Notes under the pieces: model-generated
The model's database searches: none
What the model saw: only the letters and a program-made list of their open reading frames with translations
Told to the model about the DNA's origin: nothing
Origin: Candidatus Omnitrophota bacterium
Lineage (GTDB): Bacteria; Omnitrophota; Gorgyraeia; Pluralincolimonadales; Pluralincolimonadaceae
DNA: 64,000 nucleotides
Assembly (NCBI GenBank): GCA_041653595.1
Contig: JBAZFB010000001.1
Coordinates: 68,467-132,466 of the forward strand
Direction of reading: 5' to 3'
Part shown: positions 18,196 to 50,800 of the stretch, piece after piece
Layout: each line of letters opens with the position of its first letter
Numbering within the stretch: position 1 is the stretch's first letter
Program-made: the position numbers and the translations under genes

Positions 18196-18371
18196 CCGGC
18201 CAATCTCCTGTAATAACGGCCTTCTTTATCCGAGACATTGCTGACCGCCTTGCGCTTAAAAACACCGGCAAACGCTTTTAGCGGCGAGCCGAACAAGGCC
18301 AGCGCGGCAATGATCAATATGTTCCTTTTCAGGAATTCCCTCCTGGTCATCCCTTCTTTGCGCGTATCCAT
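18192..18371 (-). CDS. Small ORF with a twin-arginine (Tat) signal peptide
   Basis: 59 aa: MDTRKEGMTRREFLKRNILIIAALALFGSPLKAFA|GVFKRK.... AGGAGG-4nt-ATG. The stop overlaps the polyprenyl synthase start in an ATGA arrangement. Confidence 0.4.
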   Translation of the reverse strand: MDTRKEGMTRREFLKRNILIIAALALFGSPLKAFAGVFKRKAVSNVSDKEGRYYRRLAG

Positions 18372-18384
18372 CTTTCCTCCTTTA

Positions 18385-19368
18385 TCACTGCCAGACTCCC
18401 GGGATCGCCTCATTACAAGAGGCGCATCTTCCGTTTGCGACATTATTTTCCAGCACATCGTAGCCGACGCGCTTTATTAAAAGCTTCCCGCACTTGGGAC
18501 AATAGGTATTATTCCCGTCGTGGGAGGGGATATTCCCGACATAGGCGTAATGGACGCCCCTCTTTTTTGCCATCTTCCACGCGGCGTCGAGCGTCTCTTC
18601 CGGGGTCGGCGGCAGGTTCTTTAGCTGGTACTGCGGCCAGAATTTGGAAAAATGCAGCGGGACATCGGCGCCCACGTTCTCGACCGTCCAGTCGATAAGG
18701 CGGGCCAGGTCATCTTTTTTGTCGTTTAGCGTCGGGACTATCAGGTTGACCAGCTCCATCCAGACTTTGCGCTCCTTGATCGCCTTTATCGTATCGAGGA
18801 CCGGTCGGAGCCTCCCAAAAGAGACCTTATTGTAAAATTCTTCGGTTATCCCCTTGAAATCCACCTTTATCGCGTCGACCGCCGAGCAGAGGTCATCAAG
18901 CGGCTTAGGGTTAATATATCCGGCGGTAATAAATACGCTTTTGATGCCCGCCTCCCGGCCGATCTTCGCGGTATCCAGGACATATTCCAAATATATGACG
19001 GGATCATTATAAGTATACGCGATCGACCTGCAGTTATACGCGGCCGCCCTTCGCGCCAATTCCCCCGGCGGGAGGTCGATATTATCGGTCTCTTCCGGAT
19101 CCGACTGCGAGATGTCCCAGTTCTGGCAGTATTTGCAGTGCAGGTTGCATCCGGCCGTTCCTATCGAGAACGCGGATGAGGCGGGAAGGAAATGGTAGAG
19201 GGGCTTCTTTTCGATGGGGTCCACGTGGACGGCGCACGGCTTTCCGTAGACGAGGCTTATTACCTTGCCGCCTTTGTTCGACCTCGCCCTGCAGTTACCC
19301 TTCTGTCCTTCATCGAGGACGCATCCGTTGGGACATAACTCGCATTGTACGAGATCTCCCTTTGCCAT
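18385..19368 (-). CDS. Radical SAM enzyme, AmmeMemoRadiSam-system / PflA-like activase family
   Basis: CNLHCKYCQNW (CxxxCxxC) motif typical of this subfamily. C-terminal CPKCG...CASC zinc ribbon. Confidence 0.7.
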   Translation of the reverse strand: MAKGDLVQCELCPNGCVLDEGQKGNCRARSNKGGKVISLVYGKPCAVHVDPIEKKPLYHFLPASSAFSIGTAGCNLHCKYCQNWDISQSDPEETDNIDLPPGELARRAAAYNCRSIAYTYNDPVIYLEYVLDTAKIGREAGIKSVFITAGYINPKPLDDLCSAVDAIKVDFKGITEEFYNKVSFGRLRPVLDTIKAIKERKVWMELVNLIVPTLNDKKDDLARLIDWTVENVGADVPLHFSKFWPQYQLKNLPPTPEETLDAAWKMAKKRGVHYAYVGNIPSHDGNNTYCPKCGKLLIKRVGYDVLENNVANGRCASCNEAIPGVWQ

Positions 19369-32494: not shown

Positions 32495-35400
32495 TCATTC
32501 TTTATTTTCTTTAGAGCTCTTAATAATATCCTTTATCTCGATATCTAAATTTGAAGTTATGAAGCTTTCTTCTTGTTTAAAGATCTCTTTTTTATTTAAT
32601 CCTTTATCCTTATCAAATGCTTTCCTTAAAATTTCGAGCGCTTTCTTTTTGTCGTTCTTCCTTAAATATGATACGCTCAATCCCAATGCATCGGTTGCCT
32701 TAAACTTGCCTTTCCCGAGAACCTTCTGGAAGATTTCGATGGCTTCGTCATATTTACCATTCTCGTAATACGCCCATCCAAGGGTTCCAAGATGATCATG
32801 ATCTTCGGGACCTAATTCCACACCCTTCTTTGCCCAATAAATCGTCTTGTCTCTTTCAGAGTTTTCTATTATAGAATCCCATGCGAGGTTATTGTAAGCG
32901 CACCCAAGGGTCGAACCATATTCAATGGCTTTCTTATAATAGAAAATAGCTTGTTTGAAATCATCTTTTTTATCGAATAAAAATCCCAAGCGTTCATAAG
33001 TATAATGATATTCGGGATTTATGCTTTCTTCAAGTTTGAATTCTCTTATTGCATCATCGACTTTATCCTTCTTCTTATAAGCTAAACCTAAAAAATAATG
33101 GGCTCTTCCAATATCCTCGTCTAATTCCAAGGCTTTTTTGGCGTTATCAATAACTTGTTCAATATTATCTTTTTTATAAAATACGCGGCAAATTTCCACG
33201 CGAAGCTCTGGGCTATCGGGCATGATTTCCAGGCCCTTTTTCAATAACTGAAGCGCTTTATCTACTTCATTTACATCAAAATACAATTCGTTCAACCAAA
33301 CATAAGCATCTGTGTATTTATTATCCAACTCAAGGCATTTAAGATATGACTGCTCTGCCTCTTTAAACATTTTTTTATTTCCATAAATTACTGCCAGATT
33401 ATAATAAACTGCTGGGGATTTAGGAGACAACGTCTGAGCCTTGAGGGTTTCCTTAAGCGCCTTATCATATTCATGATTATGGGAATACCTTGAACCGAGA
33501 CTCAAGTGAGCCAATGCAAAATAAGGGGCTATATTAAGGGCCTTCTCGAGCAGGACCTTCGTTTCATCATAAATTTTTCTATCATTTTTATTGCTACCTA
33601 TAAGAGCCATATATTTATCCCAATAGCAGTCGGCATCAAAAGGGTCAAGCTTTAAAGCCGCGTCATACATATAATCGGCTGTATCTATCCGGCCCGCAGG
33701 GAAAAAATTTGCTAATTCTTTATACGCAAGAGAAAAATTAGGGTCTTTTTTTAGAGCCAACCTCAGATAGATCAATCCTTCAAAAAAAGATGTGACATTT
33801 CTTTTTGAAATATTTTCTCCCTGATAAGCCCCCTTGGAATATAATAAAAAACAGCTAAAATCAGGAAGATAGAATTCTTCTATTCGCCTTCTCTCTAAAT
33901 CTGAAATTGATACTTCCAAATTTTTAACTATTTGAAAAATCATCTTTTGGCTCGCCTTCAGAAAGACATCTTTTCTACACTTAATCTCATCTAAAACTAT
34001 GGTTGCATTCCTCTTTTTATCAAAGATTGAAACGCTCAGGATCAAACTATTGTTATCGCTGCTTTCCTGAGAAACCCTGCCTATCAAAAGGTATTCTACT
34101 CCCCGTTTTTCACATGCTGCGGTCAGTTCCTTTCCGTTTTTTAAAAAACAATTTTTCTCGCCAGGTTCGCTGTAATAATCTAATATTGAAAACTTTCTTA
34201 TGCACATTAAATTTCTTCTAAATACCCGCTGTAAACCGATATTGATCGGCTGATGTTCCTCCGCTAAGCTGCCTACATCAAAATAGGAAATGCCTATTCG
34301 CATAGGATCCTTTATAATAATATCTTCCGGAGATATTACGGGTAAGACAGCCTCAGGATACTTTCGTAAATTCGGCCGCGGCAGTTTCGATAATTCTTCG
34401 AAAGTCATACCGGCAGTTCCTTTATAATCAAGTACCTCAAAGCGGTCAAAATAACAACTCCCGAGCATCTGGTAATTATACAAGGCGAGCGCCTTAAAAC
34501 TTAAATCCGTATCGGAAAACTTTATATGTCCGGCATCGACAAAGCCAATTTGATTCACTGTAACATCTACCGGCAGCCAAGTACCATTATCATAAATTTC
34601 GTTCCACATATGATACCCAAAATAGCCGTGGCCATAAGAGATCCCGAGAACGCCCTTTGCGGGTATGCCTAATGAACGGCAAAGAGCGCAAAATAAGACC
34701 GCATATTCCGAACAATCCCCTTCCTTGATCTTCAAGACATCTCTAGCGGAATAAAATCCTTTCTTTTCCGTAAATTTAATCTCGCCATTGATCCATTTGG
34801 AGATCTTGGTGACTTTTGTAATTATGTTCTCGTCGGCGCCTGCTATCTCCAAGGCGAGGGATCGAATTGCGTTATCGTTAATCTCGGCGTAAACGGAATC
34901 CGCTAAATATTTATTTGTATTTTCTCTCCCGATCTTAAATATCCTGTCGGGAATTTTTATATTATTCTCTACGATGACTTCGTAATTATTATTTATAAAA
35001 CTGACTTTTTGACGGGGACTTCTTAGGATCAAATTGTTCCTGATGAGCGTAAAAGAACGGCCCTTTACTTTCAGATAATAAAGTTTGTTCAAATCCACCA
35101 TATAAGTAGCAACCGGTATCGAAGACCTCTTGGATGCCGGCAATATCGCATCTTTTTCGACCTCAGATTCAGGGATTACTTTATATAACACATTTATATT
35201 TTCATATTGACCGCTAATTAATTTACCGTCTTCATCGATTATAAATCGTTGATTTAAATTATCAAAAGTTTTGCTGCTGACTGCAATTTCAAAAAAAACC
35301 TTCTGTTTGCCCCCGATGGGTGACTCGAACTTTCTGACAACCGTAAGTTTTTCTTTTATGACCTCAAGAAAATCCTCTTCAAAGACGTCAAATTCATAGG

Positions 35401-35857
35401 ACCCCACCCCCAGATTTCTATCAGCCACTAATTTCATTAAAATGACCGAGGGATACACTTTGCTGTTTGTTGACACCTTGCAATGCGTAACGTAACCATT
35501 TCTGGTAATATCGATTGCAATACCCTCTTTTGTCGCTCTCGCTTCAGCATAGAGTTCGCCTTCATACTCATGATTCTTTAATTCTAAATGGTCTAAGCTT
35601 AAATCCTTATTGACAAAAACGATAATTTCCCCTGTTTTTTTTGAATCGGGCGCATCCGCAGTCGGATAGTCATAGCTCAGTATCCTCACTTCGTGCCCTT
35701 CTTTATCCTCGCGGGGCAAAATCCGGTAGTTAAAATAGCCTGTCTTCTTGTTTTCAAAAAATATATTGCCCCAATATTCTTCATTGATTGCATCAGCCAA
35801 TGTGTATCCGGTGGACATGGATATTATCAAAATTGTAAAGAAAAATTTAAATTTCAT
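32495..35857 (-). CDS. Large secreted transglutaminase-like cysteine-protease-fold protein with C-terminal TPR repeats
   Basis: Signal peptide. TGase-like core (EGDCSEYAVLF...GYHMWNEIYDNGTWLPVD; Cys-His-Asp). More than 10 TPR motifs in the C-terminal half. Strongly AT-rich codon usage. Confidence 0.7.
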   Translation of the reverse strand: MKFKFFFTILIISMSTGYTLADAINEEYWGNIFFENKKTGYFNYRILPREDKEGHEVRILSYDYPTADAPDSKKTGEIIVFVNKDLSLDHLELKNHEYEGELYAEARATKEGIAIDITRNGYVTHCKVSTNSKVYPSVILMKLVADRNLGVGSYEFDVFEEDFLEVIKEKLTVVRKFESPIGGKQKVFFEIAVSSKTFDNLNQRFIIDEDGKLISGQYENINVLYKVIPESEVEKDAILPASKRSSIPVATYMVDLNKLYYLKVKGRSFTLIRNNLILRSPRQKVSFINNNYEVIVENNIKIPDRIFKIGRENTNKYLADSVYAEINDNAIRSLALEIAGADENIITKVTKISKWINGEIKFTEKKGFYSARDVLKIKEGDCSEYAVLFCALCRSLGIPAKGVLGISYGHGYFGYHMWNEIYDNGTWLPVDVTVNQIGFVDAGHIKFSDTDLSFKALALYNYQMLGSCYFDRFEVLDYKGTAGMTFEELSKLPRPNLRKYPEAVLPVISPEDIIIKDPMRIGISYFDVGSLAEEHQPINIGLQRVFRRNLMCIRKFSILDYYSEPGEKNCFLKNGKELTAACEKRGVEYLLIGRVSQESSDNNSLILSVSIFDKKRNATIVLDEIKCRKDVFLKASQKMIFQIVKNLEVSISDLERRRIEEFYLPDFSCFLLYSKGAYQGENISKRNVTSFFEGLIYLRLALKKDPNFSLAYKELANFFPAGRIDTADYMYDAALKLDPFDADCYWDKYMALIGSNKNDRKIYDETKVLLEKALNIAPYFALAHLSLGSRYSHNHEYDKALKETLKAQTLSPKSPAVYYNLAVIYGNKKMFKEAEQSYLKCLELDNKYTDAYVWLNELYFDVNEVDKALQLLKKGLEIMPDSPELRVEICRVFYKKDNIEQVIDNAKKALELDEDIGRAHYFLGLAYKKKDKVDDAIREFKLEESINPEYHYTYERLGFLFDKKDDFKQAIFYYKKAIEYGSTLGCAYNNLAWDSIIENSERDKTIYWAKKGVELGPEDHDHLGTLGWAYYENGKYDEAIEIFQKVLGKGKFKATDALGLSVSYLRKNDKKKALEILRKAFDKDKGLNKKEIFKQEESFITSNLDIEIKDIIKSSKENKE

Positions 35858-36288: not shown

Positions 36289-36630
36289 TCATGGCATTGT
36301 AACATAAAAGCCATGTTTTATTAAAATCGGCGCTAAAATTCGTAATGCAAGGTGAAAAAATACAAGCATTAAAACGCCTATCTGGAATAAGGTTGCTAAC
36401 ATACTTAAAATAATCGAGACTAATTTGTTTATCTTTGAAAAATTTTTAAATAAATAACCTGCCGTGCCAACAAAAATCAGAATACTTACCAAAAGTATTA
36501 CCGGTAACCAAAATTTTTGAAATATCTTACCACTACCTCCTTGACCCGCTAATACATCAGCTATGAAAACTATCGAACTCAAAAATAGGTAAGCTACATA
36601 CCCAATAATGCATAAAATAAATGATTGCAT
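36289..36630 (-). CDS. Small polytopic membrane protein, candidate immunity protein for the upstream RHS toxin
   Basis: 113 aa with 3-4 TM segments. GGGGGA RBS. Starts 18 nt after the toxin stop. AT-rich. Confidence 0.45.
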   Translation of the reverse strand: MQSFILCIIGYVAYLFLSSIVFIADVLAGQGGSGKIFQKFWLPVILLVSILIFVGTAGYLFKNFSKINKLVSIILSMLATLFQIGVLMLVFFHLALRILAPILIKHGFYVTMP

Positions 36631-36647: not shown

Positions 36648-39600
36648 TTAATATAAAGGAATTGGTTTATCTGCACCGGGTTGCCACCCGGGCAAATTTG
36701 GTATATTGGAAACACCGGCATCTTCTAAAATTCCATAAGTATAGGAGTTACTATTATAAAAGGGATCAATTGGCCAAGGTGTAGCATCATATGATAAATC
36801 ATTTTCATATTTTCCTGCTGAATTCAAGATATCTTTTATCAAATTTGTATCTGAACGTTTATCTAATATCCTCTGGCTATTTTTTAATTTTTCAGGTCTG
36901 TCAGCGGAGCTGCAAGGCGTAGCTACTAATTTACCATCTTTAGGATTGGCACTTAAGGTAAGTTCCAATTCGCCCTTTGAATTCTTATAGAAACCTGAGT
37001 TGGCAAAATCACTTGGATTATCGGGATGAAGTATAATTACCGTGTGGCTCCCCATTCCTAATACAGGCCTTGCTCCTATTGCTACATATAATCCCCACGG
37101 ATCATACTTATTAATGGGATCGTTATTGAGGTAGACGTAAAGGTTGGGTCCGTCTATCATCTCCAACGGGTCTTTGGTGATGAAGCGCCCTATTAAGGGG
37201 TTGTAATACCTGGCGCCGAAGAAGACAAGCCCTGTCTGGGGAGTGTATTCCTTGGTCTTGTAGGCGTATTTGGATTCCAAAGAGCCGGACTGATAGATTA
37301 TGTTGCCGAACGCATCGTAATCGTAGGTCTGGATGACAACGCCACTGCTGTTGGTTATCTGGTTGACGTTGCCTAAGTTGGAGTCATGATAATAGAGCGT
37401 ATTCGTCCAGTCGAAACTGCTTACAAGCCCTCCTATCCCTCCGGGGGCTGAAGGCAACTTGGAGTACATTATCAGGATATTATTTGAGGGGTCTCTTTCA
37501 ATGAGCGGGGCAAGGCCGTCATAGAGGTATTTTACCACGTTGCCGCCTATGTTGGTAGTGATACGTCTGCCGTCGCCTGAATAGGCGTAGTAGGTATTTA
37601 TATAGGGGGTTATTATGCCCCAGGGCCTGTTCTCGTAGTCGTAGTAGTAATAGGTGGTGCCGGTCCTACTGTTGGTTTCAACAACGAGATTGCCGTTGTT
37701 GTCGTAGGAGTAGCTTATCGACTCATACGGTAAAATCCTTGAAGTAATCTGGTTGGCGGCGTTATATGAGTTGGATATGGGGAGGCCGTCTCTTGTTTCT
37801 GAAGTGCGGTTTCCGGCATTGTCATAGGTGTAATTTCTGGTGTATGGGTATGAGCCTGTTTTGTCCTCATGGGTGAGGCGCCCAGCGTCGTTGTAGATAA
37901 AGTTATAGGTGTTGCCGAAGTTGTTGCTAATAGTTGTTATCTTACCGAGACTGTTGTAGTCATAGTGGTAACTCGAGAGGGTGTTCTGGGAACCATCTTT
38001 AACCGTTAAGGTGTTTACCCTGTCGTTGTCGTAGTAGAGCCATTCGGTGTAGGTGGAGTTGGGATAGTTCATTCTTGTCAGGCGGTTAGCGGTGTCGTAG
38101 TAAAAGGTTGTAGTCTGGCTCTGGGAGTTGGTCAGGGTATAGGGCAGGTTGTTGGCGTAGTAGGCGTAAGAGAAGTAACCTGCCGGAGTGGTCATGGATA
38201 TCCTGTTACCCGCGTAGTCATAGAAGTAGGTTATGGTGTCGTTGGCCTCGGGGCCGTCTACGGACGAGAGCCATGTCCTTGAGTTGTAGGTGTAGGTTGT
38301 CGCGCCATAATAATCGGTCATGGTAGCTGTTTTGCCATATCTGTTGTATAAATATACCACAGAGTTCGAGTCCGGGTATGAAACGGAATAAAGCTTGCCC
38401 GCTAAGTCATAGGTATAGGTGATGGTGTTGCCGTTAGCGTCTGTCTTGGTCTTGAGCTTACCGTTCTTGTAGTAGGTGCAGGTTGTTGTTTTGTTTAAAG
38501 GGTCAGTCTCGGTTAAGACGACGTTGACGTTGGGGTCATAGGTGTAAGTGGTGGTGTGGCCGTTCTGGTCTACCACGGAGGTAAGGTTACCTACCTCATC
38601 ATAATTGTAGGTCGTAGTATTTCCCAAGCCGTCTGCGACTGTCTTTATGCGGTAATAGCTATCAAAGGTGCGGCTTTCGACGGCTAAAAGCGTGCTGTCC
38701 GGACGGTATTTCTTCATGGTAGTGTAGTTTTTGCTGTCATTGAGTAATGGCGGGGAGCTTTCATAAGTGAAGATAGTTATCTCTTGGGTAGGGTCGGTTA
38801 CTTTAGTCAGGCGATTGTAGTGGTCGTTGTATTCGTAGGTGGTCTCAACAGGATTACCGTTGACGTAGCGGATGAGTTTCGTCATATTACCGAACGCGTC
38901 GTATTCATATTGCGTTACTTTGGTTCCAGGATCGGTTATGCTTACGCACTGGTTGAGTTCATTGTAAACATAGGTTGTTGTATGATTATTCGCGTCCCTG
39001 AAGGTCAAGAGATTGGAGTTTTTGTCGTAAGTATATTCTTCATAGCTTGAGTCGGGATAGGTCTTTCTCGTGAGCCGGCCTAAACCGTCATATTCGTAAC
39101 TTGTGGCAATCGGATCACTGCCGCTGTTATCGCCGTATTTTGAGGAAGTCATACGACCAAGTGTATCGTACGTGTACTGAATATAATTGCCTTCCCCATC
39201 CGTTTCCTTGGTGGTATTTCCGTATGTGTCGTAGGTATAATCCGTGGCTATGCCTTCGGGATCGATTATCTTCGTAAGACATCCGTACTGGTCGTACTGT
39301 TTTTCTATCGTCGCCGTTCCCTGATTATTGGGAGAAGGTGTGTATCTATGCCTTAGATTGCCATTTGAATCGTAGTCATATGTCCACGCCCTCTCTTTGG
39401 GATCTGTTATCGAAGTGATATAATGAAAAGTGGGGTCATAAGTAAAATACGCGGTATAACCTTCGTCGTTGTCGAGCTGCAAGGCGCTGCCAAAACGGTC
39501 TTGCACCCAGCCGCAGCCTTTGCCGTTCTCATCCGTAACCGAATCGCGAATATAACTATCATCGAAAGTGTAATTTGTTACGCCGTTATTTGAATCCGTA

Positions 39601-42600
39601 ATGCGAGTAATCTTTCCCTTCACGTATTCAAAGATGCTGGTTCTGTTGCGCATGTCGGTTATTGTGGTAATGCCTGTTTCAAAGAGATATTCATAAGTCG
39701 CCTGATTTCCTTTTGCGTCAGTAACGCGGTCGCAGACGTCGCTTATGTTCGAAGGGTCCCTGATATAATGATATTCCGTCCTGTTTCCCTCTGAGTCGAT
39801 ATACGCAGTTACGTTATGGATATTGCTTGCGTCATTATATTCGTATGTTTCCGAATAATTTTCGGGGCCTGTCACCGAAATTAGGTTTCCATTGTCATAA
39901 TAATAATTATAGGTAACCGAAAGCGAACCGGCAACACCTGTCACCGTCGAAATCCGGCCGTTACTATAGGTAAAGTCAATATGCCTGTCCCAATTTTCGT
40001 ATATCATATACAAAATGGGGCCGCCATAAATATACGAAAGACGGTTTCCGTTTAAGTCCTCAATATATAAAACACGACGGGTACCTTGATAGTTATCGAA
40101 ATGATATCTCTGTTTCCCGTACTTAATGGTCCAGCGCATCCAGTCATATGTCCCGTCACCATTATTGATTAGCTCCGAGCCGTCGCATTCAGGCCCGTAG
40201 TAGGAGCCGGCGCCGTTATACTCGTAACTAAATATCGTTCCATCCGGCCCGGTTATGATGACTTTTTCGGGATCCTGCCCTTGAGCCGGGATTACCTGCA
40301 TTTTGACATCGTGCGCAAGCGCCCAACCAAAGCCTATTTTGGAATCAACCTCACTGCTCGATGAATAGGTCCTTGTAAGATTCAGGCTGATGCCGTGTTT
40401 TCTCCCCCTTCCTAGTATGAATATATCTGTCTTCGGAATGATCACCTGGCCGCCTGTTATGGCTATTGGGTCAACGGGGGTGTCGCACTGTGTCGACGCG
40501 CGTTGCCCGCTTCCCATATATGTCATTCCTAACCCGCCGTCCGCATGCGGGTTATGCCCCGTCATCGAATCGTAAAGGTTAACACCCATCAAGTAATCCT
40601 CAGGAAGGCTTGCCTCCAATTTGCCATACTCTACTTCCCATTCGCCATTCGGAAGAACACCGGGATCGTTCTTAGTTATGCCTCCCTCGGATGACCGGCG
40701 ATTACCGCCCTTAATGGCTAACAGCTCGTCGGCAGCTAATTCTTTAACGTCAGGACGAGCCTTGACCGCCAGTATCTGTCCCTTCCATCTGGCCGGAAGC
40801 TCTTTATAGCTAATGAATTCGCTTGATAAATTATCTCTAACCAATATGCCGGCTGATCTTATACTCTCAAGGAATGCGTAATGACCGCTGTCTATAAACA
40901 GTATCGCTTCCCCGTTGTATTCCTTCAGTTTTTCTGCATCAATCTTAAATGCTGATACTTTCAAACCGTTATTTTTGGCCGCCTTTATAAGACCAAGTAA
41001 AGTGGTCCCGTCTTTATCCGTTCCGGCGGATTTAGCTATCTCTTTCGGCGTAGATTTTATACCGTAAGTCTTAAGCAATAAATTCAATGCATATGGGCCG
41101 CAAGCGTTATTTAGCGATGTCGCCGCTGACTGTTTGCCCAATCTTTCTATCAGCTTCAGCACCCCTTTGGCCTCGGCTGTCAGGAAATGATACGGATAAT
41201 TGGACACTAGCCGCTCAAAAGTTTCTTTGGCAAGCGGATAATTCCGCTGGTAATACCGGACCTTTCCTATCCAGAATAGAGCTTCCGCGGCATAGTAGGT
41301 GTCGCTGTTTAACGCTGTTTCATATTCCTTAAGGGCTTTTTCATAATCTTTGCGTTCAAAATATATGTGGCCTATCTCTATATGAAGCGGAGCCACAAAT
41401 TTACCCTCATCTATCTTGCTCTGCGCGTAAGCTATCGCCTCATCCGCCCCGTAATATATGACCTTACCCGTCATAGGATCTCTTTTCTTCTTCTCGCGTA
41501 ACGCTTGGACGATCTTAATATCGTCTCCTTGCGACTTAAAATATTCTATCGCCTTGTCGAATGACCTGAGCTGCCAATATATGTCCCCCAAAGCGTCCAG
41601 GTCGTTTGCTGTGTTAAAATATTTGATTGCCTGGTTAAACTGCTTTCTTTTTAGGGCCATCCTTCCCAATCCGGACATATCGTTGGCATCAGTAAAATAC
41701 TTCTCGGACTTTACGTAATCGCCAATTTCGCCGTAGAGAAAACCGAGGCCGGAAATATCATTAGCCTTTTGAAATAGTTCCAACGCTTTGTCGAATTTCT
41801 TGTCCTTAAGTTGAGTGAGACCTAATCCCGAGAGGTCGTTGGCGGCTGTAAAACAATTCTCCGCCTCCTTGAAATCACCCGCTCCCAGATAAACGTGACC
41901 TAACAACGAAAGATCATTCGCATTCTTGGCATATTGCGCGGCTCTTGCATAATCTTTCTGCACGCAATAGGTAAACCCTATGCCCGAAGGGTCGTTCGCT
42001 TTGGTAAAACTATCCAGCGCTCCCTTATAATTATGCCCCTTAAGATACGCATAGCCTAAGGCGGACGGGTCGTTTGCCTGTTTCGCGTATGATAGAGCGG
42101 CGGAATAGCTATTCATACCGTTATAGGCGACACTTAAGCCGGATTTGTCGTTTGCCTGGCTAAAAGAGCTGATAGCTTTGTCGTATTGCCTCTTGCCGCA
42201 GTAGGCATGGCCTAAGGCAGATAGATCGTTTGCCGCCAAGGCATATTTTATCGCTTCGTCGAATTGTTTCTTTCCTGAATAAGCAAGGCTTATCCCGGAG
42301 AGATCATTTGCCTGCTTAAAATATTTTAAAGCGCTGTCAAAATCCCTTTTGCCGCAGTAGGCATGGCCTATCCCCGAATTGTCCTTGTTAGAAGCGAACT
42401 GAGTAAGCGCCTCGTCGTATCTTCTTTCAGCCAAAAGGACAAGGCCGAGGCCCCCTTTGTCCCCTGCCTGGCTAAACCATCCCCGCGCTTCGTCTATCTT
42501 ATTTTCTCCCAGAGCCGCCAGGCCCATCCCCGAATAATCATTCGCCTGCCTGAAATATTCTCTTGCCTTGCTAAAATCTCTTTTTCCGCAGTAAGCGAGG

Positions 42601-42923
42601 CCTATCCCCGAGTAATCCTTCTTCTGCTCAAAGTGTCTTATTGCTTCATCATATTGGCGTTTTCCGCAATAGGCCATCCCCATCCCGGAAAGATCATTTG
42701 CTTTTTCAAAACTTTCCTTCGCAATGTCGTAACACCTCATCCCCAGATAAGCTATCCCCGCGCCGGAATAGTTATTCTTTTTTAGATATATTTCCAGCGC
42801 TCCTTTATAGTCGCCTTGCTCGATAGCCCGGAAGGCGATAACATCATCGGCAGATTCGAAACCCAGTATAAATAACGAACCCAATATCAACGCCGCGGCC
42901 ACTAAAACTATTTTCCTTTTCAT
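36648..42923 (-). CDS. Sec-secreted RHS/YD-repeat polymorphic toxin with an N-terminal 26-aa repeat array and an internal C39-like peptidase domain
   Basis: Probable start MKRKIVLV at 42923 (AAGGAG-6nt-ATG). Signal peptide. About 16 copies of ANDxSGxGxAYCGKRxYDxAIxxFxQ. C39 motifs NNACGPYAL and GHYAFL. Many YD repeats (YEYDAFGN, YTYDTLGR, YEYDGLGRLT). RHS core end ...NKYDPWGLY followed by a ~165-aa unrecognised C-terminal domain. Confidence 0.8.
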   Translation of the reverse strand: MKRKIVLVAAALILGSLFILGFESADDVIAFRAIEQGDYKGALEIYLKKNNYSGAGIAYLGMRCYDIAKESFEKANDLSGMGMAYCGKRQYDEAIRHFEQKKDYSGIGLAYCGKRDFSKAREYFRQANDYSGMGLAALGENKIDEARGWFSQAGDKGGLGLVLLAERRYDEALTQFASNKDNSGIGHAYCGKRDFDSALKYFKQANDLSGISLAYSGKKQFDEAIKYALAANDLSALGHAYCGKRQYDKAISSFSQANDKSGLSVAYNGMNSYSAALSYAKQANDPSALGYAYLKGHNYKGALDSFTKANDPSGIGFTYCVQKDYARAAQYAKNANDLSLLGHVYLGAGDFKEAENCFTAANDLSGLGLTQLKDKKFDKALELFQKANDISGLGFLYGEIGDYVKSEKYFTDANDMSGLGRMALKRKQFNQAIKYFNTANDLDALGDIYWQLRSFDKAIEYFKSQGDDIKIVQALREKKKRDPMTGKVIYYGADEAIAYAQSKIDEGKFVAPLHIEIGHIYFERKDYEKALKEYETALNSDTYYAAEALFWIGKVRYYQRNYPLAKETFERLVSNYPYHFLTAEAKGVLKLIERLGKQSAATSLNNACGPYALNLLLKTYGIKSTPKEIAKSAGTDKDGTTLLGLIKAAKNNGLKVSAFKIDAEKLKEYNGEAILFIDSGHYAFLESIRSAGILVRDNLSSEFISYKELPARWKGQILAVKARPDVKELAADELLAIKGGNRRSSEGGITKNDPGVLPNGEWEVEYGKLEASLPEDYLMGVNLYDSMTGHNPHADGGLGMTYMGSGQRASTQCDTPVDPIAITGGQVIIPKTDIFILGRGRKHGISLNLTRTYSSSSEVDSKIGFGWALAHDVKMQVIPAQGQDPEKVIITGPDGTIFSYEYNGAGSYYGPECDGSELINNGDGTYDWMRWTIKYGKQRYHFDNYQGTRRVLYIEDLNGNRLSYIYGGPILYMIYENWDRHIDFTYSNGRISTVTGVAGSLSVTYNYYYDNGNLISVTGPENYSETYEYNDASNIHNVTAYIDSEGNRTEYHYIRDPSNISDVCDRVTDAKGNQATYEYLFETGITTITDMRNRTSIFEYVKGKITRITDSNNGVTNYTFDDSYIRDSVTDENGKGCGWVQDRFGSALQLDNDEGYTAYFTYDPTFHYITSITDPKERAWTYDYDSNGNLRHRYTPSPNNQGTATIEKQYDQYGCLTKIIDPEGIATDYTYDTYGNTTKETDGEGNYIQYTYDTLGRMTSSKYGDNSGSDPIATSYEYDGLGRLTRKTYPDSSYEEYTYDKNSNLLTFRDANNHTTTYVYNELNQCVSITDPGTKVTQYEYDAFGNMTKLIRYVNGNPVETTYEYNDHYNRLTKVTDPTQEITIFTYESSPPLLNDSKNYTTMKKYRPDSTLLAVESRTFDSYYRIKTVADGLGNTTTYNYDEVGNLTSVVDQNGHTTTYTYDPNVNVVLTETDPLNKTTTCTYYKNGKLKTKTDANGNTITYTYDLAGKLYSVSYPDSNSVVYLYNRYGKTATMTDYYGATTYTYNSRTWLSSVDGPEANDTITYFYDYAGNRISMTTPAGYFSYAYYANNLPYTLTNSQSQTTTFYYDTANRLTRMNYPNSTYTEWLYYDNDRVNTLTVKDGSQNTLSSYHYDYNSLGKITTISNNFGNTYNFIYNDAGRLTHEDKTGSYPYTRNYTYDNAGNRTSETRDGLPISNSYNAANQITSRILPYESISYSYDNNGNLVVETNSRTGTTYYYYDYENRPWGIITPYINTYYAYSGDGRRITTNIGGNVVKYLYDGLAPLIERDPSNNILIMYSKLPSAPGGIGGLVSSFDWTNTLYYHDSNLGNVNQITNSSGVVIQTYDYDAFGNIIYQSGSLESKYAYKTKEYTPQTGLVFFGARYYNPLIGRFITKDPLEMIDGPNLYVYLNNDPINKYDPWGLYVAIGARPVLGMGSHTVIILHPDNPSDFANSGFYKNSKGELELTLSANPKDGKLVATPCSSADRPEKLKNSQRILDKRSDTNLIKDILNSAGKYENDLSYDATPWPIDPFYNSNSYTYGILEDAGVSNIPNLPGWQPGADKPIPLY
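41480..42790 (-). repeat. Tandem ~78-bp coding repeats (26-aa half-TPR-like unit) in the N-terminal region of the RHS protein
   Basis: Approximately 16 consecutive 26-aa units with consensus ANDLSGLGxAYCGKRxYDxAIxYFxQ, read from the translation. Confidence 0.6.
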
Positions 42924-42939
42924 CACGCTCTCCTTCTTT

Positions 42940-44571
42940 TTATTGGAGCGTCTTGCCAATGAATAACAATATTACCGCCAGAATGATCAGAGGAGTTATT
43001 GCCAAGAACCTGACAAATCTATTCTCAAAGCCGCTATTTAGAATCACTACCCCTATTGCAGTGCCTGCGGCGAAAGACAAAAACCAGATATTCCGTGAAG
43101 TTAAGCCGATGGTTAAAAAGAGTCCCGCGAAAACACATTCTATAATCACGGCTATCTTGCTGTTAGCAAGGCTGACGGAGTTATCGGCCGTGACGGGAAA
43201 ATCGGCTTTTTTGCTGACAAGATAAGCTAACGCGGCAATAGAGGAATTCACCTGCGTAGCATAGAACATGAACGTATACATGGCAATATAGCGAAATCTC
43301 TTTACGGGATGATGAATCATTTCCAAAATGGCCGGCAGTATTGGTGCGACAATGGTCAGGATAAGCATGGAAAAGAAATCCCATCTCCAAAAAAGGTTGC
43401 CCGAGATCCCGACCAATGTCCCAACGAAAGTATCATTGAAGGCAAGCGGCATTTTAAACATTGGGCCTTGGAATTGGAAATGGTAAAAATAGAACGGCAG
43501 GATTATCCCTACCGACAAAAGAAGCGCTAAAAACGGAAGGCCTAACAACAGGCTCTGAGCTGAAACGATGATGTCGAATTTTTCAATCCAGCTTATATTC
43601 CTGCTTTTGAGGAAATCCGGGTAGAATTTAAAAAGACATTCCGCCGTTCCCCTTATCCACTTTTCATTTCTTTTCCTATACTGGCGGTAGGTTGAAGGAA
43701 AATCCTCCATACAGGTTACGTCTTTTGCGTATACGCCGTAGTATCCCTTCTCCTTTATCTTCATAGAATACGCGAGGTCCTCTGTCGCCACCTCGGGGAA
43801 ACCGCCGATCGCCCTTAAAACATCGAGGCGCATTAACGCCCCGTGCCCGTAGAACATAACAAATCCATATTTATTTTTGGTACTCAGGTAATGGTCGCAA
43901 TGGAGTTCGATCTGATAACCGAGGCCTTGCGCGAAAGTTGATTTTTGATTCGAATTAAATTCCTGGCGCGATTGAACGAAAGCAACACGCGAATCACTAA
44001 AATACGGAAACAGTTTAATTATATAGTCGCTAGGTAATAGCGTATCGGCGTCAGATACGCTGAAATACTCGAAGTTCCCTATTTTACTCAATCCGTAGTT
44101 TAAATTACCCGCTTTATACCCGATCCTTTCCGGGCGCCGTATTACACTTATTGCCTTAGAATATCTGGCTACAAATTCGTCTATTCTCTCTTTGTATTCT
44201 CTGTTGGTGCTGTCATCCAAAATAAAGGTACGGAAATTGTCGTAGCCCTGAGCGAGACAAGTTAAGACCGCCTCTTCTTTAAAGTCATTGCAGGTGGTAT
44301 AGAGCAATGCGACCGCGGGAGCCTTTTCCTGATTTTGCCGAACGATATTATAGCCCGGCGTAGATTTGATATATGAGAATAGAATTATTACAAGGTGATA
44401 AAATGCATAAAACCAAAAAATATTAAGTAAGATACTAAAACATGCTACGGCAATTTTAGCAAAGATATTTTCTGGACCAACAACAAGGGCTAACACGCGG
44501 GGGCTAAAATAAAAAGCGGCGCATAGCCAGCAAAAGATCATTGTGCCGAACATTACAGGGTTCTTTTTCAT
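42940..44571 (-). CDS. Family-2 glycosyltransferase, processive polysaccharide synthase type (cellulose-synthase-like)
   Basis: N-terminal TMs. D, DxD (SDADTL) and Q-x-x-R-W-like (QYRKRNEKWIRG) motifs, then C-terminal TMs. The stop is 16 nt upstream of the RHS start. Confidence 0.7.
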   Translation of the reverse strand: MKKNPVMFGTMIFCWLCAAFYFSPRVLALVVGPENIFAKIAVACFSILLNIFWFYAFYHLVIILFSYIKSTPGYNIVRQNQEKAPAVALLYTTCNDFKEEAVLTCLAQGYDNFRTFILDDSTNREYKERIDEFVARYSKAISVIRRPERIGYKAGNLNYGLSKIGNFEYFSVSDADTLLPSDYIIKLFPYFSDSRVAFVQSRQEFNSNQKSTFAQGLGYQIELHCDHYLSTKNKYGFVMFYGHGALMRLDVLRAIGGFPEVATEDLAYSMKIKEKGYYGVYAKDVTCMEDFPSTYRQYRKRNEKWIRGTAECLFKFYPDFLKSRNISWIEKFDIIVSAQSLLLGLPFLALLLSVGIILPFYFYHFQFQGPMFKMPLAFNDTFVGTLVGISGNLFWRWDFFSMLILTIVAPILPAILEMIHHPVKRFRYIAMYTFMFYATQVNSSIAALAYLVSKKADFPVTADNSVSLANSKIAVIIECVFAGLFLTIGLTSRNIWFLSFAAGTAIGVVILNSGFENRFVRFLAITPLIILAVILLFIGKTLQ

Positions 44572-44813: not shown

Positions 44814-47800
44814 CTAAAACGACCAGCGGATGGAGTCTATGTAGAATGTAGTGGCGGATTCCGCGGTGATCTTGAACGGGCAGTAGACTTGGCTCAATGT
44901 AGCTCCCGAGAAGTCGCTTATCGGTATGGAGACTTCCTGCCACGACCCGCCGCTCGACGAGATATACTTCGTATAGGTATACCCCGCAGGCGCCTCTATC
45001 TCCACCTTTAAGGTCGTTGAACTCTTGACCCAGAACTTAAGGTAACCGTTGGCATACGTCGACAGGTCTACTGTGCCGCTCGTATGGAAAACACCCCATC
45101 CCGCCCACGCGGTGCTTATCGTCTGGAAGCATTTTGTCCCTTCAGGCGGGGTTTCGCCGGTATAATCACCGTTCCAACTGCCGAAGCCCCAGGTATAGAT
45201 ACTGCTGCCCTGCGGTATCCCGGAATCGGAGTAGACGCTGTAAGCGGTGCCGACGGTGATCTTCGTTTCGGGTTCGTAGGGCTCTCCTGTTGCGGTAAAC
45301 CTGAAGGTATCGTCCATGCCGATCCTCTCCTCATACGGCTCAACGCCTTCCCTCTTATGGTCGAAGAAGTAAGCGCCCCACATGTAGTTGCTGCCGTAAG
45401 GGGTATTTTCGGGAACCTCTATCTCGAAGCTTTCGTCTCCACTTCCGTCCTCGATAATAAAGTCCTCGCTAGCGTAAGTTTCGCCCGTATAGACATCCTG
45501 CAGGAATATCCGCAGGGTCAACGGGAAGGTCACCGCATACGGCTTCCATGCGGTTATCGTGACTATCGTGTCCAGGCCTTCCCAGACCACCGGTACTTCA
45601 ACCGTAGTGTCCGGATTGAAGTCCGTCGGGAAGTTCTCGTCCTCGACCTTCAATCGCGGCGCCCAGTATAACGAGGTCGGTACCTCATATTTATCCGACG
45701 TCTCGGTAAACCAGGTTATCCAGTTATACTTTCCGCCGCTCGCCGAATCCTCCAAGTCCGTATCGGCCGGGTCGTAGTCGGGAACCAGCGCGTATTCCGG
45801 GACATACGGACTCCTGAAATCATCCAGGAGGCCATTTACCGACTTGGTCTGCAGCCAGTCTTCCAGCCTAAACTGGGCTGCCGACGGATAGCCGGCCAAT
45901 GTCATCTTCTTTAGCAAGGTGATGATATCGGTGGCAAGATCTCCGTCGGTCAGGGTTATCCTGTAATATTTACAGGCGGTGTCTAAGTTTATCGTCGGGT
46001 TGTAATCGCCGGCCCAGTTGCCCGAGGTGTAAATATTGGTCCACGAGCTTCTGTCCGGGGACTTCTCGACGGTCAACTGGCTCCATGTGCCCGCGAAACT
46101 AAAGTTCATCGTCAACGTCGGAGATGTCGCTGAGGAGATGTCTTTAAATGCCATGGACAACTGCGGCCTTGTGCCGCTCGTGTTGGCGTTGCTGATCCAT
46201 GTAGTGGTTGTCTCGGTAAGCCAGCTGTTGGGGTCGGCCTTGCCGTCGAACATCGGGCTGCCGCCGTAGACCTCATTTGTAAGGCCGTCGCCGTTATCGC
46301 CGTCTTCCTTAAAACCGAAGTTGAGTTTAAGCGTATCATTCCTCGTGTTGTATGCGATCCAGTTATCGAACGTCCTGCCGCCGGTTGAAAGGAATGTCGC
46401 GCCGGCGTGGTAGAGGCCGTAGCCGGAGATGCTGGACTCGTAACCCGGGTCGTTAAACGAGGTGTAGAAGCCCATATGGTCCGTCCACGGGTCGGCCGAA
46501 TCCCACGGATAGGTATAGATCGTCCAATAGATGTTATCGTCGCCGCTCATGGTCGTATCCGGGATCTCGAATTGGAGGTTCTCGGTCCCGTTGGGATCTA
46601 TCGTCCATATCTCCTTTTCGGCTAACAGGAAATCGCCGTCTTCTTCATTCGGCGTGGCATATTTAAGCTGGATCCTCATCTTATAGATCTCTCTTGTCGT
46701 CCAATCGAAGACGTTCTGAGAGACCTGGCCGAATTCGTCCGTCAACTGGTCGTCGGTGTCGACGCCGTAGTTGAAGACGAAGGTCTTTCCTTTCTTCTCG
46801 CCGGTATCCGATGTGGCGAAGTAGGCGTCGTCGAAATAATACGTTCCCTGGTTCCATTCGTATAATTCGATTGAGGCAACCCTTTCCCAGTCTATCCCCG
46901 CTGTCTGCGAAACGGGCCATGATATCAAAGTCCACTCGTTCTGGACGGCCGACATCGTCGACCAGACCGCCGAGCTTAGATTGCCCCATTTGTCCTTGAA
47001 TTTGATCTGTAACGAATTGCTGCCTTGCGTGTCATATACCCAGACGTAGAAATCGGTCATAGTCGCCAGATTCATATATCCGATAGGCGCGGCGATGTTA
47101 ATACCGAGCGTGCCGCCGCCTGATGCGGATATCATCTTGACCGAACGGGTGCCGCTATGGACGATCGTCGTCTCGAACGCGGGATTAGACTGCCAGGCGT
47201 CATAGTAGTAATCGCCGGGGGTCGAATTGCCGGGCTCGAGGTTCTGGAAGGAAACGTTCTCCTTGGTCAGTAGGTTGCTTATCAAAGCAGGTGCGGAAGA
47301 GGCCGCGTTCTTTATATCGGCGATCTTCGTGCCTGTCGTAACCGTCGTCCAGGAGATCGCGGAAGCGCCCGAAGCCGTCGCTATATTCTGGCCGTTGGAG
47401 TAATCCTTGGTGATGTAATGAGTGTTGTCGGTAACCTGCAGGTTCAACAGGTCGCTTAAGGTCGTATACCCTGAATCGACGCCAAAGGCGCTCTCGATCC
47501 TTCCGGTGCCCGATGAGCCGTCCGGCTGCTTGATGCCGACGCCGCCGTCCGTGGCCACGACCGTAAACTGTCCCGCCTGCAAATACGCCTTTATGTTGTA
47601 GCATTCGTCGTTATTCATGACATAGACGCTCGGCAGGACCACGATCGGGAAGAATTCTTTCAAGTAACCCCAATCGAGGTTAAGCAGGTTGCCGTCGAGG
47701 CCTCTCTCGTTATCGTCGATGAAATAGTAACCCAACACGGGTTCCCATACGCCCAGCTGTGAGGCCTTTGCGCCCACTCCTATCTTTCCGCTGGCGAGGC

Positions 47801-50800
47801 CGGTGTTGGTAAACCCGCCTTGATACTCATTATCAAGATAGACCTGGAAGTTCGGTCCCGCCGCGATAACTTTCAATGTATGGAAGGTGCCGGCCGAGAG
47901 GGGGTTTGCGAGGTTGGCTACATTACCTCCGAACTCCTGGCCATTTACCCTTCCGCCGTACTTCACCCTCCAGAGCCCATAGTTGTTGTAGGGCTTGACG
48001 TAGTAGAAGTTGTTGTTATCCTGATAACGGAAGACAAGGTACGCCTCCGCGAAGTACGGGTCCATTGTGACGTACTTGAATTTCATCTCGGCGGTATAGT
48101 CTGTCCATGCCGAGTTTCCCGCAACCGAGATATTATAGCTCTGGCTCATTCGGTCGATGCTGTACTCATAGCTCGGCACCGTCCAGCGGCTCGAACCTTC
48201 CGCCACCGTCCAGTTGTTCGCGTTGCCGCTGCTGAAATCATCCGAGAACAGGGTATTGCCGCCGCTCGTTACCACGACGTCATCGAAATCGGTGACCGCC
48301 GGGTTGGAATGGACGTAGCCTAAGTCCTCAAGCCAATCGCAGACCTGGTTTACCTTATTGTAATGGGTTGAATACAGCGCCTGCGTCTTGGCGGACCTTA
48401 CGACCGCTATGCGCTGCGGGAAGGAAGTCTCCCTGCTGATAGGCGTATTCTCCCATGATTGATATTCATACAGGTCCTCCCACTTGAAATTGACGGAGTA
48501 GCTCTGTCCTTTGTTTAACGCGGTCGGAAGAGACGTGGTGGGAGCCGCTCCCCATTCCAATTGCGTCTTTTGATACGACTCCGCCACCTTTACGCTCGAC
48601 TCCTCCAGCCAGGCATGAATGACGTAATTTCCTCCGTCTGGAGTCGATATATAGTCGCTGTCGGCCTTGTTCGCATCCGGTATCCAGAGCCACAGCGTCT
48701 GTTCGCCTGCTCCGGTGACGGTGGTATTCATCGACTCATAGATCTCGTTGGGGGTGTTATCCCCGTTGTCGCCGTCTTCCTGGAAAGCGACGTATAATGT
48801 CAGATCCGATGCCGCCAGGGTATCATACCTTACCTTGACCTGATACGACTTATCCCCCATGGGGTGGACGACAGCCGGCGCGTCAAGTATCGTAGCCTTC
48901 TTTGAAGGAGAACCGCTGTAAGCCTTTATCAGTTCATGGCCGTCGGGTACCAGCGTCAAATTAAACGTCCCGTCGCTGTTCTCTTCTATAACCCCGCCTG
49001 TGGTCAGATTCTCGACTGTCCTCCCGCTGATCAGGCTCGTCGTTATCGTCACGCTCTCGTTCTGGTCGTTTCTGTAATTCTTGGCCGATATCAGGATGGA
49101 GCCGTCGCTCCCGGTCCTGTAACAGACCTGGACATATTGAGAGCCCGTGACATTCAAACTCGGCTGTATGCCGAAGCCGGTCAAGAATATAGCCTTCATC
49201 CAATCGTAATGCTTTGCCCACGGGATTATATCCTGTTTGCCGTCGCCGTCTCCGTCCGGGCTTATGTCTCCCAGGCTGAACGTCGTTATAGCGGCCTTGG
49301 ATGTCCCGTTGTCCTTTATCACAAGCGCAGGGTTGCCGTTTGAATGGGTGGCATAGACCGTGCCTGTCGTAGCGGTGATCATATTGCTGTATTTCCAGAC
49401 GCGGAAGACATCCTGTCTTGATGCGGTCAACGGCGAAAGCGCCTGGGTGACCGTCGTGGTGATGGGCGTAAAATTAATCCCATATTGGCCGTTTCTTGCC
49501 GGGTCATCATAACCGGAGGTATTCGCGGCATTGACGCCGAAGATATTGCCCATCTCTGTTGTGAAGTCGCCTAATGAGTTTACGTGGTAGTCCTGCATTC
49601 CGGGCAGGTCCGCGTCCGCGTAGATGTTGACGCCCGCGGGAATTATCTTTGTGCGGATATAATTCATATCCCCCGGGTAGGTCCGCATATTCCTCGGCAG
49701 TATTATAGCCGCGTAAGAACTGTAATCGGCCGGCGTGCCGTTATTCTTCTCGAAACTCTGGAACGCAATCTGGCTTCCAGATACATAGGTCGCCTGATCT
49801 AAATAATAGACGCCCTGATTCCATTCATAGAGCTCGACCGATGCGATCCTGTCTTTGTTGAGATTGGGAACGCTTGGATACTGCGTCATGTCCCAGTTTA
49901 TCTGTGTCCACTGGTTCTGCACCGAATTGTTCGAAGACCACAGGCAATAGCCGTCGCCTCCCGACCCTCCGTCGCCTTCCGCGTCTCTTAAGCGCAGTTG
50001 GATAGAGTTATTCCCCTGCGTATCATAGACCCAGACAGAGAAACCGGTAGCGCTGCTTAAATCCATTACCTGAGCGCTGTTGGCCGGGTATACCGCAACC
50101 GTCCCGCCGCCGCTTCCGGCAGTTATCTTCAGGGATCTCGTCCCGGCATAAACCGTCGAAAGGTTTATCACGGGATCAGACTGCCAGATATCCTTAAAAT
50201 ATTTCGAAGCCAAAAGAGCGGTCCTGTCGATAAATGCGGGGTTCAGCCCCAGCCTCGTCAACGGGCCGTAGAGCTGCTGCATGTTGCATTCATAACGGTT
50301 ATACATCCCGTCGGTCGCATCCGACCAGTAGAACGCCACATCCGGGGTGGGGTCGGTCGAATTTCCTATAAGCCCTTCGACGTCTATCTGCTCCATCAGA
50401 TTATAGGTATCCCTTACGACCCAGAACGAAGGCTTGATCCTTCTGTCGGCATATACGATGCCGAAACCTTTTTCCCTGTCTGTAATATAGGGCCTGTCAT
50501 TCCAGGTGAAGACGTGGACGCCTATGGCACCCGCTTCCAATTCCTCCCATAAGGAATTTCTTATCAGCGGTCCCTGGTTCAGTTCGTTCATCCCGGAATA
50601 CATTGTCTCGGAACTCGTGAAACCGGTCTCGGTGCAGAGAACGGGCAGACCCGTCCTCCATTTGGCATTTATCACTCCCCACCGGCCTGTCTGGGACTCA
50701 TGCCCCAACAGGTCCCACGGATAATTATTTATAGACCAGAAATCAAGCGGAGCGCCTATATCCCTGCAGGCCTTCGCGATCTTGGCCGTATCCTCTGCGT

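Follow-up and report, generated by a model that had tools for sequence, protein, structure and literature searches.

An array of 26-residue TPR-like units linked to RHS toxin-type proteins in Omnitrophota

Introduction

Among the closest described systems to the one considered here are the Sec-dependent RHS/YD polymorphic toxins, in which a signal or anchor, N-terminal repeats, an RHS shell and a variable C-terminal toxin follow one another in a teneurin-like layout, with a small open reading frame (ORF) downstream; tetratricopeptide repeats (TPRs) and Sel1 repeats are both on record among them (PMC3482391). Here, we analysed a 64,000-nucleotide stretch of a Candidatus Omnitrophota genome (contig JBAZFB010000001.1, positions 68,467 to 132,466; hereafter the window, with positions counted from its first letter), in which a single minus-strand gene encodes an array of short tandem repeats, a peptidase C39 domain and an RHS shell. 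The protein shares the layout of the described toxins and differs from them in its 26-residue repeat, in a partner gene that is either split or fused, in an internal C39 domain with a double-glycine-like site, and in a linked gene for a GT2 glycosyltransferase.

C39 domains have been described near the N-terminal signal peptides of large Omnitrophota surface proteins and were proposed to cleave them (bioRxiv 10.1101/2023.11.21.568195). A combined RHS, C39 and TPR system in Omnitrophota, or an RHS partner module of this kind, was not found described in the literature searched, the coverage of which was incomplete. With the array, the RHS toxins of uncultivated Omnitrophota-type bacteria gain a conserved partner of their own, in three architectures, and this leads to a testable proposal for the way in which RHS shells are kept in place and set free where the locus shows no evident type VI or Tc apparatus.

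A 26-residue repeat in strict register

An initial annotation, made from the letters of the window, had placed an array of about 16 repeats of the form ANDxSGxG-AYCGKRxYD at positions 41480-42790. When the protein is cut every 26 residues from residue 49, 16 units are obtained in perfect register (Table 1), and their column consensus, A-N-D-L-S-G-L-G-L-A-Y-(L/C)-G-K-R-(D/Q)-(Y/F)-D-(E/K)-A-(I/L)-x-Y-F-x-Q, agrees with that repeat. The most conserved columns are D3 and A20 (each in 15 of the 16 units), S5 and G8 (14/16) and F24 (13/16). The mean BLOSUM62 score at a lag of 26 residues is 1.79, compared to -0.86 ± 0.09 for 200 shuffled sequences, which places it about 29 standard deviations above them, and the only lags that stand out are 26, 52, 78 and 104.

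The DNA of the array had been described as degenerate, which is also what we found: Tandem Repeats Finder reported no repeat at a minimum score of 30, and this rules out a recent DNA duplication or an assembly artefact. The mean identity between units is 39% for the protein and 49% for the DNA, and the third codon position is identical in a fraction of 0.43 where the residues are the same. The low identity of the DNA and of the third positions, together with the lack of a repeat at the DNA level, shows that the array is old and has been kept by selection at the protein level, rather than having arisen by recent duplication of DNA.

A cysteine recurs at unit position 12 (AYCGK). It is found in 5 of the 16 units in the window and in most units of two related proteins with longer arrays (P0004 and L006), and is rare in the standalone homologues. 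Position 12 falls in the first helix of the modelled unit, and the recurrent cysteines would form a line along an exported solenoid.

Relationship to the TPR and to other repeats

Canonical TPRs, such as those of the consensus TPR (CTPR) proteins (e.g. PDB 8chy and 2fo7), form antiparallel hairpins of helices A and B that stack into a solenoid. When the repeat region alone was compared with Pfam, TPR_2 matched with 129.4 bits (cut-off 27; E = 5.9e-39) over 12 stretches and TPR_1 with 117.5 bits; in these matches, only about positions 4-27 of the 34 profile positions were covered. A profile built from four units was aligned by hhalign to four consensus TPRs with a probability of 99.2% (E = 3.4e-19), and every hhalign alignment to TPRs contained exactly one gap of 8 residues per repeat. 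Similarly, only designed consensus TPRs were matched when phmmer was run against PDB sequences, again with an 8-residue gap at each junction. The canonical TPR proteins retrieved in a large HMMER search showed the same offset in the reverse direction, with 100 profile positions spanning about 124 residues.

The period of the array is exactly 26 residues, in the 16 units here and in the 8-31 units of its relatives, rather than the 34 residues of a TPR. The equivalents of the TPR core positions L7, G8, Y11, A20, F24 (F or Y) and A27 are conserved in 9-15 of the 16 units, and W4 and P32 fall within the deleted segment. The eight deleted residues correspond to the DPNN/DPRS inter-repeat loop together with the turn that opens helix A. 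The array retains these six core positions and, in the structure prediction, the stacked hairpins of the canonical repeat, and differs from it in its period, in its shorter helices (about 10 residues compared to about 14) and in the loss of the junction. These results provide good support for a unit that is a TPR shortened at its junction by 8 residues, and we consider the identity of the array as a contracted TPR solenoid to be highly probable.

Other repeat families were compared with the same region. Sel1 scored 22.9 bits against a cut-off of 30.7, on a single 15-residue stretch, and its unit is 36-44 residues long compared to the period of 26 found here; of 30 Pfam families at E ≤ 10, the 25 that were listed did not include MORN. 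A new fold class, Sel1 and MORN are ruled out by the strong TPR matches, by the Sel1 score below its cut-off and by the absence of MORN from the families listed. The initial annotation had suggested a possibly new helical-hairpin repeat, shorter than TPR or Sel1. The short period was borne out by the register of the units and the hairpins by the structure predictions described below; the proposal of a new repeat class was not, since TPR profiles match it, and the outcome that the annotation itself had named as a refutation, resolution into TPR or Sel1 repeats in HMM profiles, was largely obtained. Conversely, the array does not resolve into ordinary repeats of either family: it is largely matched by TPR profiles, yet with an 8-residue gap in each unit, and the Sel1 match stays under its cut-off.

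The array also resembles the solenoids of coat and intraflagellar transport (IFT) proteins (TPR_COPA_B, TPR_IF140-IFT172, Clathrin repeat), with which it shares short helices and tight turns. In Pfam, TPR_COPA_B scored 46.9 bits (cut-off 33) and TPR_IF140-IFT172 scored 30.5 bits (cut-off 26.8) on the repeat region, and IFT-A and clathrin chains were among the matches of the fold search, with template modelling (TM) scores of 0.15-0.28. Coat and IFT solenoids have irregular repeats and a beta-propeller, whereas the array is strictly 26-periodic and has no propeller. Membership of this group is ruled out by the lack of an N-terminal beta-propeller and by the low TM scores, and the likeness is one of resemblance only. 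In NCBIfam, no named family was found for the 26-residue module, with all matches far under cut-off. A strict 26-residue variant of the TPR was not found described in the literature searched; since the coverage of that search was incomplete, this is weak evidence of novelty.

Predicted structure of the array

An AlphaFold2 (AF2) model of an 8-unit segment, computed from a 5-row alignment of non-overlapping segments, reached a predicted local distance difference test (pLDDT) score of 96.3 and a predicted TM score (pTM) of 0.84, and all five models scored above 95. In this model, each unit consists of a 3-residue turn, a 10-residue helix, a second 3-residue turn and a second 10-residue helix: helix A is L-S-G-L-G-L-A-Y-L-G and helix B is Y-D-E-A-I-x-Y-F-x-Q, with A-N-D as the turn between repeats and K-R-D as the turn within one. 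A single-sequence AF2 model of residues 23-597, which was used for secondary structure only, shows continuous helices of about 10 residues separated by 3-residue turns, with one of the five models being confident (pLDDT 83). The units are predicted to stack into a thin alpha-solenoid rod.

When the 8-unit model was searched against the PDB with Foldseek, the best E-value was obtained for an 8-repeat consensus TPR (CTPR8), each repeat of which was paired with one unit of the model, at 24% identity. The path of the predicted superhelix nevertheless differs from that of CTPR8, and the two do not superpose (TMq 0.41; root-mean-square deviation 13.4 Å), and the highest TM score of the model to any solved chain was about 0.6, for the TPR domain of PEX5. 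The array is a natural TPR cut to 26 residues, kept in strict register for up to 31 units, on which no solved structure superposes well, and the 26-residue solenoid may therefore serve as a compact building block for the study and design of repeat proteins.

Distribution of the 26-residue arrays

In a word-indexed search covering 5.8 billion proteins, only three relatives were found (P0001-3, of about 400 residues and 36-41% identical), and one of them is named as Candidatus Omnitrophica. Scanning 1.84 billion representative sequences with the 4-unit profile in HMMER gave 5915 matches at E ≤ 0.001, mostly ordinary 34-residue TPRs. Among the best 150 of the 5915 matches together with P0001-3, 23 of 153 proteins were 26-periodic. 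True 26-residue arrays are rare, with about 20 clusters in the best 150 matches, and those clusters that carry a name come mostly from Omnitrophota. All ten of the clusters that were looked up were singletons, and the names given were those of a C39-domain protein of Candidatus Omnitrophota and of one 'Verrucomicrobiales' metagenome-assembled genome (MAG). A scan of species-representative genomes gave four clear relatives, all from Omnitrophota MAGs. Across the family the number of units is 8, 16, 21 or 31, and never is the register shifted; in the longest case (L006, 9392..15961, an ORF that runs off the contig), about 31 consecutive units cover about 806 residues with zero indels.

The profile also matched short-period helical repeats that are unrelated to the array (P0031, P0080 and P0144). 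P0031, of 1252 residues, has about 40 single-helix 13-residue units of the type 'WExAGxCF' behind a region that by eye resembles a UvrD-type helicase, and the 26-residue unit of P0080 is unlike that of the array.

Three architectures linked to RHS proteins

The initial annotation had assigned the array to an RHS toxin, and a DUF6531 domain and an RHS shell are indeed present in the same protein. The linkage extends to the related loci: in 12 of 12 loci, the 26-residue module is fused to a DUF6531/RHS protein or lies directly before one. The module is fused in the window, L006 and P0004, and is a separate protein in L001/2, L003, L007, L008, L009, L016, L018, L019/20 and L021. An N-terminal hydrophobic segment is present in all members.

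Three architectures can be distinguished. In architecture (a), found in L001/2, L003, L007, L008, L009 and L021, the array protein stands alone and consists of the hydrophobic N-terminus, 8 units and the same tail as in the window (residues 465-590 there, which are also kept in the standalone homologues P0001-3). A DUF6531/RHS protein with its own signal peptide is encoded immediately after it; in L001, the stop codon of the array gene abuts the start codon of the RHS gene. In architecture (b), the array, the C39 domain and the RHS shell are in one protein, with 16 units in the window, 21 in P0004 and 31 in L006. In architecture (c), found in L016, L018 and L019/20 (proteins P0007, P0008, P0013, P0015, P0020, P0022 and P0027), the hydrophobic N-terminus and about 8 units are followed by a second membrane helix and a C-terminal C39-like domain, and a DUF6531/RHS gene whose product starts with its own membrane helix always comes next. 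The pattern of fusion in some loci and splitting in others argues for a physical partnership of the array and the RHS protein.

A GT2 gene lies upstream of the module in the window, L001/2, L006, L007, L008 and L009 and nearby in L021, and is absent from L003 and from the loci of architecture (c). Several further genes were observed around these loci. A very large Laminin_G_3 protein precedes the module in L019/L020 and in L016. In L001 (17303..21134), and also in L002, T2SSE, T2SSF, T2SSG and GspH genes, of the type II secretion or type IV pilus-like kind, lie 2-6 kb downstream, and in L019 an N_methyl gene (17812..18450) lies near the RHS gene. Small ORFs come after the RHS gene in L001, L008 and L019.

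The C39 domain and a double-glycine-like motif

In the window protein, the candidate catalytic residues of the C39 domain are the cysteine of NNACGP (residues 605-610) and the histidine of DSGHYAF (residues 678-684). Both align with those of LahT (6mpz) and PCAT1 (4ry2) in the fused forms only. In the C39-like domain of architecture (c), the cysteine is replaced by D, S or P and the histidine by T or S, and since both residues are replaced, this domain is dead. The dead variants have a parallel in the dead C39-like domain of HlyB.

A short motif follows each active-looking C39 domain: LAADELLAIKGG in the window (LLAIKGG), LSYKQTMSIKGG in P0004 (TMSIKGG) and AIDIKAG in L006, in each case followed by EGGxTKxDPG. 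In the window, the motif starts 6 residues past the C39 Pfam match and has L(-12), E(-8), L(-7), I(-4), G(-2) and G(-1); we take LAADELLAIKGG to fit the double-glycine leader consensus. In L003, the RHS protein carries LSPSEMAKIKGG right after its signal peptide. Like the C39 domains of PCAT/AMS exporters (PCAT1, LahT, ComA), those of the fused forms match the C39 fold, keep the Cys and His and are accompanied by a leader-like L..EL..IxGG motif. Unlike them, the window C39 has no ATP-binding cassette transporter; it is part of a Sec-exported protein, and the putative substrate motif is found in cis, just C-terminal to the domain. This arrangement suggests that the C39 domain may cut in cis at the double-glycine-like motif and thereby free the RHS part.

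Proposed function and alternative explanations

We propose that the array is a membrane-anchored stalk or docking scaffold of variable length for a Sec-exported RHS toxin, which is released by self-cleavage of the C39 domain, and we give this reading a probability of roughly 0.55. Because the array comes right after the hydrophobic segment, it would be exported and would probably stay tethered to the inner membrane, where a length-adjustable solenoid would carry the RHS (YD-shell) polymorphic toxin. In the window, the scaffold, an active-looking C39 domain and the RHS toxin form one polypeptide, and cleavage by C39 at the double-glycine-like motif would release the RHS shell from the anchor. 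Most relatives encode the scaffold separately, as a protein of about 400 residues whose gene lies just upstream of that for RHS, and this protein presumably binds RHS non-covalently. The initial annotation had suggested that the array may be a stalk or a receptor-binding module of the toxin; of the two, a stalk agrees with the membrane segment at the N-terminus and with a number of units that varies. The repeat itself, its descent from the TPR, the hairpins of the model, the order of the domains, the linkage of the genes and the conserved Cys and His are established by the comparisons above; we infer the topology, the tethering, the binding of RHS and the self-cleavage from the sequences, and for the scaffold role of the array taken by itself, to which linkage and fusion point, we put the odds slightly under even.

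Several points weigh against this proposal. The topology is read from sequence only, and there would be no tether if the hydrophobic segment were a signal peptide that is cleaved off. The single-sequence AF2 model of residues 23-597 is weak on global shape (pTM 0.45). The double glycine is AG in L006, and the motif is absent from most of the split RHS partners; moreover, cleavage by C39 is not shared by the whole family, because the C39-like domain of architecture (c) is dead and lies behind a second membrane helix. In addition, the conserved GT2 synthase next door is left unexplained by a stalk.

TPR proteins commonly serve as secretion chaperones or adaptors, and the array might instead hold the Sec-exported RHS protein transiently in the periplasm and pass it to an outer-membrane route of the type II secretion or pilus-like kind. 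The separate proteins and tightly coupled genes of the split forms, down to the abutting codons of L001, are consistent with such a role, as are the type II secretion and pilus-type genes downstream in L001/L002, the N_methyl gene in L019 and the likeness of the dead C39-like domains of architecture (c) to the substrate-binding C39-like domain of HlyB. However, a chaperone would leave both the covalent fusion and the expansion from 8 to 31 units unexplained, and no secretion genes were seen adjoining the repeat gene in the window; we regard this explanation as unlikely. The membrane GT2 gene found directly upstream in the window and in five further loci, and nearby in L021, could point to another role for the array, in which it would work with the GT2 synthase as a periplasmic TPR scaffold for synthase-dependent exopolysaccharide production (as BcsC, PgaA, PelB and AlgK), with the RHS link being secondary. 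Yet L003, L016 and L019 have no GT2 gene and keep the RHS partner, the fusion partner is RHS and not the synthase, and Pfam shows no fusion of the array to an outer-membrane porin domain. The NCBIfam PgaA family reaches 16 bits (cut-off 367), and does so for P0007 alone, and no such family matches the window module, which makes an exopolysaccharide scaffold quite improbable.

TPR solenoids also bind peptides and other ligands, and the surface positions of the unit vary while its core positions are fixed, which would be compatible with a module of the toxin that recognises a surface molecule on prey or competitor cells. Omnitrophota have been proposed to be predators or parasites (bioRxiv 10.1101/2023.11.21.568195), which would also suit such a module. 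Its position speaks against this: the array is N-terminal and beside the membrane segment, it would be left behind in the fused forms if C39 cleaves, and in the split forms it lies outside the toxin polypeptide altogether, which leaves target recognition with a small share of the probability only. Some immunity proteins carry fused TPR repeats (PMC3482391), and in L021 a TPR protein comes after the RHS gene. An immunity or regulatory function of the array protein is nevertheless very improbable: in every case the array either precedes the toxin or is joined to the toxin's N-terminus, and it is conserved from locus to locus. Immunity genes, in contrast, are located downstream and differ along with the toxin tip, and the separate small downstream ORFs fit an immunity role better.

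Extended to its full scope, the stalk and scaffold proposal would make the array, with or without C39, an undescribed system by which Omnitrophota and neighbouring lineages present and release Sec-exported RHS toxins, with no dependence on type VI secretion or Tc injection. In such a system, the 8-31 units would set the distance between shell and membrane, C39 cleavage in cis would fire the toxin and GT2 would supply a required glycan. This wider version is doubtful as a whole.

The host gene and its neighbourhood

The coordinates of the features are given in Table 1. The repeat gene lies inside a minus-strand ORF (36648..42959), and probably starts at the ATG at 42923, which AAGGAG precedes by 7 nt. 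The stop codon of the GT2 gene is 14 nt upstream of this ATG (intervening bases 42924..42939). Residues 1-22 of the protein resemble a signal peptide or a signal anchor, and neither an AxA site nor a lipobox Cys was present in them on inspection of the sequence. The homologues share this hydrophobic segment, which ends in (L/M)GF(E/Q).

Table 1. Coordinates of the repeat gene, of the parts of its product and of the adjoining genes in the window.
Feature	Position	Strand	Basis or remark
Whole gene, 2091 aa	36648..42923	minus	ORF list, translation, Pfam, NCBIfam
N-terminal hydrophobic segment, aa 1-22 (MKRK + IVLVAAALILGSLFILGF)	42858..42923	minus	Read from sequence
Degenerate N-terminal capping hairpin, aa 23-48	42780..42857	minus	Register table; AF2 gives two helices
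16 tandem 26-residue contracted-TPR units, aa 49-464, no indels	41532..42779	minus	Register, consensus, TPR homology, AF2
Array tail, aa 465-590: half unit, short beta-hairpin, canonical-length TPRs (aa 512-578)	41154..41531	minus	Pfam, AF2
Peptidase_C39, aa 605-723	40755..41111	minus	Pfam, 75.3 bits (cut-off 22)
Double-glycine-leader-like motif LAADELLAIKGG, aa 729-740	40704..40739	minus	Alignment of fused forms
Conserved EGGxTKxDPG, aa 744-755	40659..40694	minus	Alignment of fused forms
DUF6531 (typical RHS N-terminal domain), aa 818-897	40233..40472	minus	Pfam, 29.6 bits (cut-off 24.1)
RHS/YD-repeat shell, to the Rhs-associated core with DPWGL (aa 1941-1946)	37074..40232	minus	Pfam, NCBIfam
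C-terminal domain past DPWGL, aa ~1951-2091 (~140 aa)	36651..37073	minus	Presumed toxin
Hydrophobic small ORF, 113 aa, directly downstream of the RHS gene	36289..36630	minus	ORF list
Membrane GT2 glycosyltransferase, 543 aa, multi-pass	42940..44571	minus	Pfam Glyco_tranf_2_3, 85.6 bits

The best TPR_2 and TPR_12 stretches of the tail in Pfam cover residues 512-576. The hallmarks of RHS/YD polymorphic toxins (RHS repeats, DUF6531 and a core with DPxGL) are all present in the window protein: RHS_repeat scored 216 bits over 15 stretches in Pfam, and TIGR01643 and TIGR03696 (73.3 bits) were matched in NCBIfam. The C-terminal domain, which had no Pfam match at E ≤ 1, is presumed to be the toxin by analogy with the general RHS architecture. 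The 113-residue hydrophobic ORF downstream, for which there was no NCBIfam match, is a candidate immunity protein. The GT2 protein gave weak CelA/PgaC/MdoH-like matches in NCBIfam, all far under cut-off.

The region between positions 32000 and 45000 has a low GC content (0.35-0.48 compared to 0.53-0.57 on either side) and contains a transglutaminase/TPR gene, the small hydrophobic ORF, the RHS fusion gene and the GT2 gene; it looks like a horizontally acquired cassette. The first of these genes (32495..35857, minus strand), just downstream of the RHS cassette, encodes 1120 residues that include a transglutaminase-core domain and canonical TPRs of 34 residues. The gene at 44814..52034, also on the minus strand and upstream of the GT2 gene, encodes 2406 residues, in which a CarboxypepD_reg domain at the N-terminus is accompanied by a GH42-like beta-galactosidase domain.

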